Below are positions 5,112 through 35,053 of a DNA stretch of 64,000 nt, piece after piece (positions within the stretch are counted from its first letter, which is position 1; each line of letters begins with the position of its first letter). Position numbers and translations under genes: made by a program. The notes beneath the pieces were generated by a model. That model was not told the DNA's origin and searched no databases. It saw nothing but the letters and a program-made list of their open reading frames with translations. The DNA lies in assembly GCA_017522205.1 (NCBI GenBank), contig JAFWZS010000079.1:5928-69927 (forward strand), written 5' to 3'. The stretch is from Clostridia bacterium. GTDB taxonomy: Bacteria > Bacillota > Clostridia > Oscillospirales > Acutalibacteraceae.

Positions 5112-6431
5112 TTATTTTACAATAACTTCCTTTGATTTCAGGTACTTGTTACACTTGTCCGTACCGCTTTTTACGATAGCCATTGTCCTTTCATAGGAAG
5201 CCTTTGCCTGACTTAAGCCGTCGGTTGATTTGTTAAGTCCCAGCTTTTCAGCCTTGCCGTCCATATTTTTTGAAAGAGGTACTATGTTATATACCTTTTT
5301 TCCGCCTGAGGAGTAAACGTGTACCCAGGTAGGAATGCTTTTTACACTTTCAAAAACGACTTTTCCGTCGCTGTATTTTGAAAAGGTCATTTCAAAAACG
5401 AGACCGTCTTCCGTGTGGCCGGTTTTAAGTCCCATATAGGCTCTGCGCTGATTTGAAAGCACGTTGCCGAGAGAGTATACGCAAACTGTCTTATGCTTTT
5501 TATCTGTTGAAGTGAGAAGGTCAACAGGTTGAACAACGTGGGGATGTCCGCCGATAATTACATCCACTCCCATATCGCAGAGCTTCTGTGCAATTTCCAT
5601 CTGCTTTGCGTTTTGCGTCAGCTGATATTCTTCACCCCAATGAAGATAAACCGTAATAACCTCCGCACCCTTTTTCTTCATTTTTTTCATCTGAGCACTG
5701 AGGTCCTCATAGAAGGGTGCAAGGTTTGAGGGCTTGAACGAATTGATAAGAGGAGCTGTTTTGCTGTCAACGGAAATACCGTTGAGGGATTTTCCGCCTG
5801 ATGACGGTGTTTCAAAGGTATAGCAGACAATGCCGAAATCGATGTCGTTTACCTTTGCAATGAGATACTTCTTATCATCTTCACTCTGTCTTGTACCTGT
5901 GTAAGCAAAGCCTTTTTCCTTAAGTACTTTTTGTGTACGGATAACACCGTCATAGTTTTTGTCAAAGGTGTGGTTATTTGCGGTGAGAAGGCAGTCAACA
6001 CCTGCTTTTTTTAGTGAATCTGCAATCTCGTCGGGTGAATTGAAACGAGGGAAACCGCTGTAGGGCTTGCCTGAGCCCGCAAGAACAGTTTCAAGGTTGG
6101 CTACAAAGTAATCGCTGTCTTCAATAAGAGAATCCGTATAAGTGAAAATGTTGTCGAAGTTGTAGCCGTCAGCCGTTTTTGCTGCATTGAAAATAGGAAT
6201 GTGAATCAGCACGTCACCTGCAGAACGGATTGTTGCCGTTGAGGTGATATGGGGTGGCGGTGGCTCTGTGGTTGTGGGAGCTTCTGTTGTGGTGGTTGGT
6301 GCTGCTGTGGTGGTAGGCTGAATAAAACCCGTATTTTCACCGAGTGTAAGCACCGCACCGAAGGTGAGTATTGCCGCAACAACTGCCAGAATGACAACTA
6401 CGGCAGTTTTGGTAGTATTTTTCTTAGCCAA
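5112..6431 (-). CDS. CapA-family (poly-gamma-glutamate capsule synthesis / metallophosphatase-like) protein, membrane anchored
   Basis: N-terminal TM segment, Thr/Pro linker, then CapA-like blocks (ANLETVL, LLTANNHTFD, GGHPHVVQP). Confidence 0.75.
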   Translation of the reverse strand: MAKKNTTKTAVVVILAVVAAILTFGAVLTLGENTGFIQPTTTAAPTTTTEAPTTTEPPPPHITSTATIRSAGDVLIHIPIFNAAKTADGYNFDNIFTYTDSLIEDSDYFVANLETVLAGSGKPYSGFPRFNSPDEIADSLKKAGVDCLLTANNHTFDKNYDGVIRTQKVLKEKGFAYTGTRQSEDDKKYLIAKVNDIDFGIVCYTFETPSSGGKSLNGISVDSKTAPLINSFKPSNLAPFYEDLSAQMKKMKKKGAEVITVYLHWGEEYQLTQNAKQMEIAQKLCDMGVDVIIGGHPHVVQPVDLLTSTDKKHKTVCVYSLGNVLSNQRRAYMGLKTGHTEDGLVFEMTFSKYSDGKVVFESVKSIPTWVHVYSSGGKKVYNIVPLSKNMDGKAEKLGLNKSTDGLSQAKASYERTMAIVKSGTDKCNKYLKSKEVIVK

Positions 6432-11119: not shown

Positions 11120-11196
11120 TGGCGCGCTGTAAGGGACTCGAACCCCTGACCTACTGGTTCGTAGCCAGTCACTCTATCCAGCTGAGCTAACAGCGC
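11120..11196 (-). tRNA. tRNA-Arg (anticodon ACG)
   Basis: The reverse complement GCGCTGTTAGCTCAGCTGGATAGAGTGACTGGCTACGAACCAGTAGGTCAGGGGTTCGAGTCCCTTACAGCGCGCCA folds as a cloverleaf. The anticodon loop is CT-ACG-AA and CCA is encoded. Confidence 0.9.
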
Positions 11197-20914: not shown

Positions 20915-21349
20915 TTACAGATACTTTTTGAGGCTGTCGCTGAGGTTTTCCTCTTCATTTATAAGGCGTTTTGCAAGGCGCTTTGATTTGTCGTCAGCCT
21001 CGGTGTAATCGTTGAGATATCCCGTCAGCTGCTTGATTCCCATATTGCATCCGTCAAGAATAAGGGAAGCAATGGTTTTATCACTTTCGTTCATCATCAT
21101 TTTCATATTGATTTTTGTCCACGACATCATTTTTGCCATAGGCGACGGGTCTTTTCCGTCACCCTCAATTTCATCGAGATATTCTTTTATGTCCTGAATA
21201 ATCAGCTCGTGTTCCTCTGTACTTTTTGTAAGCAGAGCCAACAGATCCTTTGATTTTACGTTGTCAAGAACCTCTTTGATTGAGCTTACGGCAGTTTTTG
21301 TTCCTGCGTCACATTCTTTTAAAAGCTTAATTGTATCCTCGTTTGGCAT
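20915..21349 (-). CDS. hypothetical all-helical cytoplasmic protein
   Basis: 144-aa ORF with a GGAG RBS. The helical, acidic sequence fits no family I can name confidently. Confidence 0.45.
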   Translation of the reverse strand: MPNEDTIKLLKECDAGTKTAVSSIKEVLDNVKSKDLLALLTKSTEEHELIIQDIKEYLDEIEGDGKDPSPMAKMMSWTKINMKMMMNESDKTIASLILDGCNMGIKQLTGYLNDYTEADDKSKRLAKRLINEEENLSDSLKKYL

Positions 21350-21418
21350 ATTGAATCACTCCTTTGCTTTTAGTATTGACGGAAAACGGGGCGGTGATAC
21401 AGGGGAAATGAGTTAAAC

Positions 21419-21527
21419 CGGTGAGTGGGGCGCCGATTGAGCAGTTTCCTTCAGGGAAACTGCTCAGTTCCGCCGAAGGCGGAACGCCCCCGGATTTTTC
21501 CGGGGGCATCGGCGCCCCTGCCCACCG
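21419..21527. other. GC-rich perfect four-way-junction palindrome (candidate structured RNA or DNA cruciform element)
   Basis: Outer stem 21427-21437/21508-21518 encloses three abutting perfect hairpins (21438-21466, 21467-21485, 21486-21507). An extension pairs 21419-21423 with 21523-21527. Confidence 0.6.
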
Positions 21528-21615
21528 CAGGAGAATGACTTGCCTTTTTCTCTGAGCCCCGACCTTTAAAGCACAATTTAAGTGGCTCTGCTATATTCTA
21601 AAGTGAATTAAACTG

Positions 21616-21644
21616 TTGCATTTTAAGTAAATAGATGTTAAAAT
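21616..21644 (+). promoter_or_regulatory. sigma-A promoter candidate
   Basis: TTGCAT-17 nt-TAAAAT, 30 nt upstream of the TTG start at 21675. Confidence 0.5.
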
Positions 21645-21674
21645 GTATCTATTAACCTAAAGGAGGTTTTCGTT

Positions 21675-23156
21675 TTGGACGAACTTAAAAAAGATGAAAT
21701 CCTTGAAGAATCCGAAGAAGCAGTTGATGCAGAAGCACCTGCAGAGGAAACCGTCGAGGATGTAGAAACTGATTTTTCAGAAGAAATTCCTGAAGCAGAA
21801 GAAATCGTAGAAGAAAAATCCGAGCTGGAAGCTGAGCTTGAAGAAATCCGTGACATGTTCCAGAAGGAGCTTGATGCAGCTTCTGACGGCACAGATGAGG
21901 TTCTCATTCAGGAGCTTGAGGATGAAGCTGAAGAAAGCGAAGAAGAGGAAGAATTTGTTCCCTGCGACTGCTGCGGTGAAAATCCCCGTTCAGTTTCCTA
22001 CGGTGAGGATTATCCATACTGTGATTCCTGCCGTGAAGCTATGAAGCGCTATCCCCTCAGATTCAGCGGCTTTCTTACTCTTGTTATCAGCCTTGCACTT
22101 ATTGCAGGCACAGCTTATTTTGCAATGCCCACAATTGACAGCTGGATTCCTACCCTTGAAAGCGTTTCTCTTTATAAAGAGGGTAAGCTTTACTCTGCAA
22201 TTGAATCCTCATACTCCGCACTCAATTCTTCCGACAAAGAAAATATTTCAAAAAAGCTTGTGCGTGAAACAATTGATGCTTATGTTGCTACAGGCTATTA
22301 CAATGATGCAGTCGGTCTTATTGAAATGTTCTTTACTGAAACAGAGCTTAAAATGCCCTGGAATGCAAAGTACAATAAAATCATAACAGAAAACACAGTT
22401 TTACAGGAAACATATTATACTGTTTCAGATATAATCGAACCTGTTGCCAACGGCAAAGAGTACGACTACGACACCATTATAGCTTCTCTTGACGCACTTA
22501 AGGAAGTGAATCCCAAAGAGGAAGGCACAAGCACCGTTACAGAAAAATACAACGAGGTATTCATTGAATACTACAAATATGTTGTAATGAGCGTCAACGG
22601 AAAGAGCGTTGAAGAGCAGCTGGCTCAGCTTAAAAAAGTCCACGAAATCGGAGAGGGTTATGAATGGACTTACCTTTCAAACCTCTGCGGCATTGCTGCA
22701 AGAGCAGGCGACGAGGAAACAGTTAACGAGGCTTTTGAAAAGGCAATCGAAATCAACAAGGAAGACGTGAACGCTTATATTGCAAAGGCAAGCTACTACC
22801 GTTTCCTTGAAACTCCCGACGCTGACAAGATTCTTGAAATCTGCGCTGAGGCTGCGAAGAACTCCTACGGCGGCGACGTTTCCTATAAGCAGTATGAAGC
22901 AATTGCTTACCTTATCAAGGGTGAGGGTGCTATGGCTCTTGAAGCAATTGAAGAAGCAATTTCATCAGTTTATACCGTTCAGAGCTGCAACCTTTATGCG
23001 CTTTGCGGACTTTACAACGGCAACACCGATATTTACGATGAAATGAAGGATGTGCTTGAGGGCGCAGGATACGAACTCAGCCCCCTTGTTGAAAAATACA
23101 AGAAGGGCAAAATCACAATCGCAGAAATTATCGCTGACAACGGAGGTGACATCTGA
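21675..23156 (+). CDS. hypothetical protein: acidic N-terminus, CxxC..CxxC zinc ribbon, TM segment, TPR-like helical domain
   Basis: TTG start 9 nt after an AAAGGAGG RBS. CDCCGEN...YCDSC motif, one TM segment and a helical repeat region. Confidence 0.5.
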   Translation: MDELKKDEILEESEEAVDAEAPAEETVEDVETDFSEEIPEAEEIVEEKSELEAELEEIRDMFQKELDAASDGTDEVLIQELEDEAEESEEEEEFVPCDCCGENPRSVSYGEDYPYCDSCREAMKRYPLRFSGFLTLVISLALIAGTAYFAMPTIDSWIPTLESVSLYKEGKLYSAIESSYSALNSSDKENISKKLVRETIDAYVATGYYNDAVGLIEMFFTETELKMPWNAKYNKIITENTVLQETYYTVSDIIEPVANGKEYDYDTIIASLDALKEVNPKEEGTSTVTEKYNEVFIEYYKYVVMSVNGKSVEEQLAQLKKVHEIGEGYEWTYLSNLCGIAARAGDEETVNEAFEKAIEINKEDVNAYIAKASYYRFLETPDADKILEICAEAAKNSYGGDVSYKQYEAIAYLIKGEGAMALEAIEEAISSVYTVQSCNLYALCGLYNGNTDIYDEMKDVLEGAGYELSPLVEKYKKGKITIAEIIADNGGDI

Positions 23157-33667: not shown

Positions 33668-35053
33668 ATGAAAAAAGTGAAAGACTCTTTCCGCTCAGCT
33701 TTGCCTTACTATAAAAGAATGCTCACTATTGCCGTACCGATTATGATACAGTCCGGCATTACCAATTTTGTCAGCATGATTGACAACGTTATGGTGGGCA
33801 GGGTAGGCACCTTGCAGATGACCGGCGTTTCAATAGTCAATCAGATAATTATGGTGTTCAACCTCTGCATTTTCGGCGCAATGTCCGGTGCAGGTATTTT
33901 TACCGCACAGTATTACGGCAAAAAGGATAACGACGGCATAAGAAACACGGTGCAATATAAAATTATCACTGCCCTTATTATTTCCGCTTTCGGCATCGGA
34001 GCCTTCGTTTCAATGGGTGATTTTCTCATAAATGCCTATCTTCAGGGTGAGGGCTCACCGGAGGATATATCCCTCGTTTCAGAGTATGCAAGAGGCTATC
34101 TTCAGATTATGCTTTTAGGTATTGTTCCCTTTGCTCTTTCAAATGCATATTCTTCATCCTTAAGAGAAACAAGCGACAGAATTATTCCTATGATTGCCAC
34201 AATTTCTGCCGTTTTCACAAATTTCATTCTCAACTACTGTCTCATTTTCGGTAACTTCGGCTTTCCCCGTCTCGGTATAAAGGGTGCGGCAATTGCAACG
34301 GTTATTTCCCGTTTTGTTGAGCTTTTCATTCTTATGCTTTGGTCACATACTCACACAAAAAAATACCCCTTCATAAAAAAGCTTTATTTAAAAACTACTA
34401 TGACAAGAGAGGAAATAAGAAAAATTACACTTATTACTCTGCCTCTCATCATCAACGAAACCCTTTGGGCAGGGGGTATGGCTTTCCTTAATCAGTGCTA
34501 CAGTATAAGAGGTCTTGACGTTGTGGCGGCAATCAACATTGTTTCCACTCTCAGCAATGTTTTCAATGTTGTTTTTATTTCATCGGGCAGTGCCATCGGT
34601 ATAATTATGAGTCAGCTTCTCGGTGCAAAAAAGGTAAAGGAAGCAAAGGAAAACAGCATGAGGCTTATCTGGTTTTCCGTTTTTCTCGCTTTTATTATCG
34701 GAGTTGTTATGGCGCTTTTCTCACCCTTCTTCCCGAAAATTTATAACACCACCGATTCGGTACGCACTCTTGCAACAGAGCTTCTCTTTATTCTCAGCAT
34801 TTTTATGATGGTTCACGCCTTTACAAACGGCAGCTATTTCACCCTGCGCTCAGGCGGAAAAACCGTTATGACCTTTATTTTCGACAGCGGCTTTGTGTGG
34901 CTTTGCAGCGTTCCCGTGGCTTTCATTCTCAGCAGATTCACCGGTGTTTCAATTATTTATCTTTACATCACCGTTCAGGCTCTTGACCTTCTTAAATGTG
35001 TTCTCGGTTACATTTTTGTGAAAAAAGGCGTGTGGCTTAACACGGTGGTATAA
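33668..35053 (+). CDS. MATE-family efflux transporter
   Basis: 12 TM segments and the N-terminal PIMIQSGITNFVSMIDNVMVGRVG motif. Confidence 0.85.
   Translation: MKKVKDSFRSALPYYKRMLTIAVPIMIQSGITNFVSMIDNVMVGRVGTLQMTGVSIVNQIIMVFNLCIFGAMSGAGIFTAQYYGKKDNDGIRNTVQYKIITALIISAFGIGAFVSMGDFLINAYLQGEGSPEDISLVSEYARGYLQIMLLGIVPFALSNAYSSSLRETSDRIIPMIATISAVFTNFILNYCLIFGNFGFPRLGIKGAAIATVISRFVELFILMLWSHTHTKKYPFIKKLYLKTTMTREEIRKITLITLPLIINETLWAGGMAFLNQCYSIRGLDVVAAINIVSTLSNVFNVVFISSGSAIGIIMSQLLGAKKVKEAKENSMRLIWFSVFLAFIIGVVMALFSPFFPKIYNTTDSVRTLATELLFILSIFMMVHAFTNGSYFTLRSGGKTVMTFIFDSGFVWLCSVPVAFILSRFTGVSIIYLYITVQALDLLKCVLGYIFVKKGVWLNTVV

Follow-up and report, generated by a model that had tools for sequence, protein, structure and literature searches.

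The element at positions 21427–21518 of the window, i.e., of the whole 64,000-nucleotide stretch of a Clostridia bacterium contig that was analyzed, belongs to a dispersed repeat family in which a closing stem encloses three abutting hairpins. We lean toward reading it as a relic of a REP/MITE-like mobile palindrome that has been kept perfect by template switching from arm to arm and is carried here as a passenger. The first-pass annotation of the locus offered two candidates, a novel structured RNA and a DNA-level cruciform or recombination site; the second of these is favored by the data described below, while the first found no support. It had also allowed that a hit to a repeat class would overturn the proposal, and this has come about in part, as the element has nine copies in its own genome and about 64 in seven species.

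The element and its neighbors in the window

The genome concerned (G000) is a 1.45-Mb MAG of a member of the Acutalibacteraceae from the ruminant gut, 74% complete and with a GC content of 42%. Either strand of 21427–21518 folds into a closing stem and three abutting hairpins with zero linker nucleotides. The coordinates and pairings first described for 21419–21527 hold to the base, as do the stem positions, except that the stem of the second hairpin comprises 8 bp and not 7. The fold was correctly placed, yet the unit runs some 15–20 nt beyond it on each side, in a degenerate inverted repeat of AACCGGTGAG type that had been missed. The element is indeed GC-rich (0.57–0.62, vs. 0.26–0.40 in the flanks). 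For 21410–21535 the minimum free energy is −89.5 kcal/mol on the plus strand (z −10.4; matched by none of 200 shuffles) and −90.4 kcal/mol on the minus strand (z −13.2). The features are as follows:

21415–21425, unstranded: outer degenerate inverted-repeat arm, left (aaaccggtgag), the left end of the unit, pairing imperfectly with 21519–21528
21419–21423 with 21523–21527, unstranded: outer-helix extension cggtg/caccg in the fold, across a small internal loop
21427–21437, unstranded: closing stem, 5′ arm GGGGCGCCGAT, recurring in 53 copies in seven genomes
21438–21466, unstranded: hairpin 1, of TG…CA type, 12-bp perfect stem, loop ttcag
21467–21485, unstranded: hairpin 2, of GTTCC…GGAAC type, 8-bp stem, loop gaa
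21486–21507, unstranded: hairpin 3, 8–9-bp stem, loop (a)tttt(t), the equivalent of the AAC…GTT hairpin of other copies
21508–21518, unstranded: closing stem, 3′ arm ATCGGCGCCCC, pairing with 21427–21437
21519–21528, unstranded: outer degenerate arm, right (tgcccaccgc), the right end of the unit
21616–21644, plus strand: likely promoter of the 493-aa gene (TTGCAT, 17 nt, TAAAAT), downstream of the element and outside it

The element lies 70 nt upstream of a minus-strand gene (20915–21349), whose 144-aa product gives a weak DUF2383 match, below Pfam's cut-off; trpS is located further left. On the other side, a plus-strand gene encodes a 493-aa protein without a Pfam match, and its likely promoter begins about 100 nt past the element. 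Directly right of the element, on the plus strand, a small hairpin GCAGGAGAATGACTTGC is followed by CTTTTTCTCT (21527–21553); it is terminator-like by consensus scan, and its counterpart in the sister species G009 differs in sequence. The stretch that holds the element is also found in contigs of at least 20 independent gut metagenome runs, and therefore it is not an assembly artefact.

At this locus only G000 and G009 carry the element, and in these two genomes alone the DUF2383-like gene stands between the 493-aa gene and trpS. The 493-aa gene's promoter block is conserved in G009 as well, and it is nearly unchanged in G050, G071, G072, and G084, where the element is absent; the promoter works without the element in these four sister species, which argues against the RNA first proposed. 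In more distant relatives the DNA upstream of DUF2383 is plain and AT-rich. Judged from gene order, the trpS/DUF2383/493-aa spacer is a hot spot of rearrangement. When the loci L343, L345, and L344 were compared, trpS was seen to stand directly before the 493-aa gene in G050 and G071; the DUF2383 gene of G084 lies at a distance of about 1.8 kb, with its relative orientation reversed.

The RNA proposal in its general form states that the element stabilizes or terminates transcripts from the 3′-UTR, as REP and BOX may do, and serves at the window locus as a 5′-UTR cloverleaf of the DUF2383 gene. In the window, the Rfam search that had been suggested gave no known family for the element: at gathering level the only match in the 64 kb is a tRNA (11123–11196), and there is no match to the element even at E < 10, the best score of a permissive scan of 21300–21700 being that of Chloroflexi-1 (16.2 bits vs. 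a threshold of 80 bits, E = 1.1). In three bovine-gut metatranscriptomes, contigs with a depth of 2–6 at this one locus begin at 21630–21638 and cover the 493-aa gene from there; none of them covers the element or DUF2383. The element is covered by one run of unrecorded type, and only DNA-type runs are listed for the 186-nt stretch that contains it. These data, thin as they are, give no support to a transcript across the element. In favor of the 5′-UTR version, a consensus scan, which was judged uninformative, found no clear sigma-70 promoter between the element and the DUF2383 start, and the element may lie in the 5′ UTR of that gene. On balance, the window copy would seem to be a passenger in a divergent spacer, with no sign that it controls either neighbor.

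Copies, architecture and genomic placement of the family

The genome-wide count that the first-pass annotation had called for, done by a regular-expression search of the G000 assembly, gave nine copies on nine contigs. They have a common closing stem, GGGCGCCGA[T/C] with [A/G]TCGGCGCCC, around three perfect hairpins that differ widely in sequence and length. When the same pattern was applied to 117 genomes of the genus, multi-copy matches were confined to G000 and six others, with 11 exact-stem copies in G009, 9 in G050, 3 in G071, 8 in G072, 1 in G074, and 12 in G084, so that the total of 53 comprises the nine of G000 and 44 from the six sister species. The reversed pattern, used as a control on the 117 genomes, gave zero matches; isolated single matches in other genomes of the genus fall in coding DNA, and no copies were found by pattern search in sixteen other genera of the order. 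A covariance model trained on 19 copies and run on the 117 genomes returned the same seven genomes only and about 10 extra copies with altered closing stems, which brings the family to about 64 copies in seven species. In the other 110 genomes of the genus the family was found neither by the pattern nor by the covariance model. The carriers form a tight subclade, as the identity of the DUF2383 protein is 96% for G009, 91% for G084 and at most 69% for all others.

Within G000 the four-way fold is almost confined to this closing stem. A structure-only scan of the whole 1.45 Mb of G000 recovered six of the nine copies and one unrelated nested palindrome, while a shuffled genome gave one match. 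Neither other closing-stem families (structure-only and mismatch-tolerant scans) nor degenerate copies (mismatch-tolerant scan) were found in G000. The unrelated palindrome, the sole other four-way candidate of the structure scan, lies at 34303–34408 of contig C61 and has CTCCCTC/GAGGGAG arms, a closing stem, three hairpins and 2 linker nucleotides. Carriage by phages was considered and rejected: at least 245 pattern matches in viral contigs, from two scans, all fell in unrelated GC-rich DNA, and the junction fold was absent among the matches listed. At three contig ends of G000 (C27:1–213, C69:1–192, and C6:7–172) there is a stretch of some 200 nt that matches the right flank of one G084 copy (L073) at 88% identity, which suggests an unassembled multi-copy element.

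The architecture is constant. All 53 exact-stem copies consist of a closing stem and exactly three hairpins, and the closing stem is GC-rich, 10–11 bp long (GGGCGCCGAY with RTCGGCGCCC). In the commoner order, termed T-type, the closing stem is followed by the TG…CA hairpin, the short GTTCC…GGAAC hairpin, the AAC…GTT hairpin and again the closing stem, and in 23 of the 27 T-type copies the junction has no unpaired nucleotide; the orientations with TG first and with AAC first are both common. Each hairpin is conserved over the two to four pairs at its foot, beyond which three or four Watson-Crick pair types alternate. In hairpin 1, for instance, the foot pairs T-A and G-C are kept in 25–27 of the 27 copies of T-type, with covariation in the distal pairs. 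From copy to copy the tips are scrambled in sequence, yet Watson-Crick paired. Since a looser consensus (e.g., TGAAGAnnATTTC) is still visible in the arms, the copies are homologous and not convergent.

Outside the closing stem, a degenerate inverted repeat of AACCGG[TC][GA]AG type extends for about 15–20 nt on each side; comparison of the flanks of the 53 copies gave the consensus (G)AT[GA]AACCGG[TC][GA]AG for the left arm and CTYRCCGGTT for the right one. The unit therefore has terminal inverted repeats of the kind expected of MITEs. The core (closing stem with three hairpins) measures 88–133 nt, and the whole unit, AACCGGTGAG-type outer repeats included, about 130–150 bp. Apparent outer stems of 190–235 nt, which gave the impression of a giant hairpin, turned out to be mostly T-runs, A-runs and arms that belong to the neighbors' terminators, outside the repeat unit. 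An attempt to orient copies by their flanks was given up, as the outer arms are too symmetric and degenerate.

By flank comparison the 53 copies reduce to 25 genomic sites. Among the 23 that could be classified, 13 are convergent, nine co-directional and one, the window's own, divergent, whereas a crude ORF map of the own genome gives 18% convergent and 22% divergent gaps (convergent enrichment p = 3e-5; divergent depletion p = 0.02). The family is thus extragenic and located mainly past the 3′ ends of genes and in convergent gaps, in the manner of REP-type repeats. The neighbors are unrelated housekeeping genes with no functional theme; they code for an aminotransferase, a tRNA-editing domain protein, MatE, CtsR, YhhN, GerA, YlmH, rubrerythrin, GluRS, HrcA, and a metallo-beta-lactamase fold protein.

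Such placement bears on the proposal that the repeats act in RNA. It is in keeping with a 3′-UTR role that only the window site is divergent, the other 24 of 25 being unclassed or adjoining one gene 3′ end or more. At a few sites (e.g., C71-type) the element is interposed between stop codon and terminator, or follows the stop at 8–30 nt; these copies must be transcribed and could act there. At one site a G050 copy with a T-run replaces the plain terminator of G071, and among co-directional T-type copies the AAC hairpin comes first on the sense strand in 10 copies vs. 2, which represent only about 5 vs. 1 sites. Against this, a canonical intrinsic terminator stands between the stop codon and the element at many loci, on one or both sides, so that the copies beyond it lie outside the transcription units. 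The element was not itself recognizable as an intrinsic terminator: the closing stem is not consistently followed by a U-tract, most of its 3′ flanks are rich in C (CCTGCC, CGTGCC, and the like), and a T-run occurs after it in few copies only, with separate canonical terminators flanking many copies. Many of the flanking terminators (L050, L052, L057, L061, L066, and L069) have a GGTGTGACAGCC-like 3′ arm or loop motif, and this on both sides of the element.

The enrichment between convergent genes, where supercoils accumulate, may alternatively suggest that the repeats serve chromosome topology or organization between convergent units, in which case it is the geometry of the junction that would be selected. 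A precedent for such functional DNA would be provided by the REP/BIME elements of E. coli, to which gyrase, IHF, and HU are known to bind, and REP-derived RNA has, together with HU, been linked to cruciform DNA (PMC4550694). Absence of the family from 110 of the 117 genomes implies, however, that it has no general housekeeping role, and close relatives whose sites are empty or hold a plain terminator show no visible consequence. We regard a topological role as rather doubtful.

Pairing, covariation and change at orthologous sites

Pairing within the family is nearly perfect. The 53 cores contain 2516 Watson-Crick pairs, 48 G·T and 64 A·C. In an alignment of 19 copies, 97.8% of the cells pair, 27 of 37 pairs have changed in both partners, and double-changed cells outnumber one-sided changes of the G-U type by 136 to 3; the covariation was reached by 0 of 500 shuffles, and slid registers came nowhere close. 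At co-directional loci the sense strand has 69 G·U vs. 51 A·C, i.e., there is no meaningful strand preference. Scarce G-U intermediates and equal folding of both strands fit a DNA palindrome and favor it over a typical RNA family. Taken with tolerated inversions of loops and interiors, with the position of most copies beyond terminators and with the metatranscriptome contigs that reach the adjacent gene and miss the element, this makes the 5′-UTR stabilizer or protein-binding cloverleaf RNA first put forward, and the RNA reading of the family as a whole, very unlikely. A role in RNA is possible for the minority of copies that are transcribed; it is not supported as the rationale of the family.

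Comparison of orthologous sites indicates how such pairing could be maintained. Thirteen of the 25 sites are common to 2–5 species, with coding flanks that are 73–98% identical; at these sites the closing stem and hairpin feet are kept and the tips are replaced, with pairing still perfect. The closest orthologue pairs differ by two kinds of change only, namely reverse-complemented loops and symmetric double substitutions. A loop of 8 nt is reverse-complemented between the C70 copy of G000 and that of G074, where flanks are 98% identical, and loops of 8 nt and 3 nt between G050 and G071 and between G050 and G072, respectively. At the window locus the whole interior is inverted in G009 relative to the flanks: the TG hairpin is found at the other end, as is the equivalent of hairpin 3, whose loop reads AAAAAT vs. 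ATTTTT in the window copy.

The closing stem also changes on both sides. In the G084 orthologue of the C70 site it reads GGGCAACCAT with ATGGTTGCCC, three pairs being changed in both arms; this variant was tried as the mark of a sub-family and is present at one G084 locus only. The other closing-stem variants comprise three that are compensated, one G·T, one decaying arm, and one copy without an arm. Before hrcA, about 100–150 nt from the copy, there is a CIRCE operator (TTAGCACTC, 9 nt, GAGTGCTAA; L348 and L349, G084:C43 and G071:C13), an ordinary one, which confirms the orthology of the C70-type site.

These changes are what polymerase template switching would produce. Such switching between the arms of an inverted repeat is known to homogenize the arms and invert the spacer, and it yields apparent compensatory changes in one step (PMC8604942, PMC8794818, PMC7202029). 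The fold would act at the DNA level, where either strand can form a perfect four-way junction, and wherever strands are single, as at replication forks or in supercoiled DNA upon extrusion, each arm may template its partner intramolecularly, so that arms are homogenized and what lies between them is occasionally inverted. This would account together for pairing that is perfectly Watson-Crick, for double changes that lack intermediates and for loops and interiors that have flipped. Copies would persist where they are least harmful, mainly in untranscribed gaps behind gene 3′ ends.

Inverted interiors might also be read as the work of a site-specific recombinase, with the conserved 10-bp inverted repeats recombining and the interior flipping as a switch. 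The inverted-repeat sequence is indeed conserved and common to many loci, both interior orientations are frequent in the family, and the window locus itself differs in this respect between G000 and G009. However, the interior carries no promoter-like sequence and is itself made of three palindromes, so a flip changes almost nothing; inversions occur also within single hairpins, where there is no conserved site, and most copies follow gene 3′ ends instead of preceding genes. Neither a recombinase nor a transposase gene was found next to any of the G000 copies. An inverton is, on this evidence, highly improbable.

On the most economical reading, the family spread once, as a non-autonomous nested palindrome of REP/MITE type, in the ancestor of the seven-species subclade, and would since then have been inherited vertically with occasional loss. 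Several sites filled in sister species are empty in G000, and orthologous sites that are empty or differently filled were seen in G000, G071, and G084. A comparison of occupied and empty sites (C71, C41, C72, C77, and C79) gave no consistent direct repeat of the kind left by MITE target-site duplication, the boundaries being blurred by divergence. No two G000 copies have hairpin tips in common that would point to recent mobility, and the sole near-identical pair within a genome (C78 and C136 of G050) is also alike in its flanks and hence represents a duplicated region or strain variant. As neither a transposase partner nor a target-site duplication nor a recently copied pair was found, we infer the mobile origin solely from the dispersed homologous copies. 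A search for Y1/RAYT (PF01797) found none in the carriers G000 (74% complete), G072 (95%), and G084 (96%); the domain is present in 68 of the 117 genus genomes, and a RAYT/IS200 link was discarded, as PF01797 across the genus does not track the carriers. At positions 5700–5960 of G000 contig C72, the site where G050, G071, and G084 have the four-way junction holds a different palindromic element with tandem GAAAGTT-type heptamer arms, and heptamer arm repeats occur also upstream of the G084 orthologue of the 493-aa gene (L344). It would seem that the same spacers are open to palindromes of different families.

Some observations go against template switching as the only process at work. No hairpin has been lost or gained in any of the 53 copies, the junction stays linker-free, and the closing stem is near-invariant over about 64 copies, although the flanks have diverged by 12–27%. 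This constancy is a hint of selection on the junction itself. The repeats could then be a Holliday-junction mimic that is bound or processed by a structure-specific host protein (e.g., HU, a RuvA/RecU-type protein, gyrase or a recombinase). Conservation of the junction-flanking pairs and closing stem with free tips speaks for this, as does the prevalence of compensation among the closing-stem variants. Yet no candidate protein is confined to the carrier species, and decaying and truncated copies exist. Binding or processing of this sort seems to us fairly doubtful, and the stronger proposal, that the linker-free junction is itself selected and read by a structure-specific protein as a new class of structure-encoded genomic signal, unlikely. 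A palindrome with a past mobile phase, maintained by template switching and without a cellular function, is the reading we prefer.

Relation to known repeats and significance

Small structured repeats of MITE type include BOX, RUP, and SPRITE of pneumococci, the neisserial Correia elements and enterobacterial ERIC. The present family resembles them in being non-autonomous and intergenic, with terminal inverted repeats and strong predicted folds. They are single long or modular hairpins with target duplications (e.g., TA in Correia), often found inside or just after transcripts and well documented as transcribed and affecting mRNA; to our knowledge, none of them is a linker-free four-way junction. 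A likeness exists also to integron attC sites, which combine conserved outer inverted repeats with a variable, sometimes branched center and in which the folded single strand matters over sequence. However, attC sites need extrahelical bases and strand asymmetry and stand in co-directional cassette arrays beside an integrase, whereas the copies described here are symmetric, perfectly paired, and dispersed singly with no adjacent integrase.

With REP, BIME, and REPIN sequences the family has in common that they are GC-rich extragenic palindromes, located behind gene 3′ ends or between convergent genes and foldable on both strands; these are thought to be mobilized as folded single-stranded DNA and are bound as DNA by host proteins (PMC3733652; PMC3184786). 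REPs are, nevertheless, single imperfect hairpins of 20–40 nt that are headed by GTAG or CGTC, number in the hundreds and are linked to RAYT (PMC3733652; PMC3184786), while the present unit is a 90–130-nt four-way junction with about 6 copies per Mb and no Y1 co-occurrence, and no GTAG or CGTC tetranucleotide head was found at its ends.

Among described elements, bcr1 of the Bacillus cereus group comes closest; it is a MITE-like, dispersed intergenic repeat of about 100–155 bp that was called "cruciform-like" (Okstad 2004 and Klevan 2007, summarized in PMC3184786). It also comes from Firmicutes, is non-coding and lineage-restricted, and has a closing stem around independent stem-loops with compensatory changes (PMC3184786). 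In contrast to the present family, bcr1 has two inner stem-loops, i.e., a three-way junction, and 5-bp direct repeats at its ends, is distributed in a non-conserved way from strain to strain, and is transcribed (PMC3184786). The family described here has three linker-free hairpins, no detectable direct repeats, positions largely conserved between species and no sign of transcription or of a likeness to bcr1 in sequence. In the literature on cloverleaf, four-way-junction, and nested-palindrome bacterial repeats, only papers on REP, MITE, and bcr1 and on mitochondrial repeats came up, and no published description of a linker-free four-way-junction repeat was found.

For the annotation of the window, the element is to be entered as a repeat copy and not as a riboswitch or leader of the neighboring genes. 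The family, with its approximately 64 copies at 25 sites in seven species, forms a natural data set in which apparent textbook RNA covariation is better explained by arm-to-arm copying of DNA, and this calls for caution in covariation-based discovery of RNAs in metagenomes. It may also become a model for quasipalindrome correction and hairpin-loop inversion in bacteria. One may ask what it would mean if junction geometry were selected after all. The repeats would then represent an unrecognized DNA-structure signal, e.g., an insulator that responds to supercoiling, or a landmark for recombination or replication where transcription units converge.
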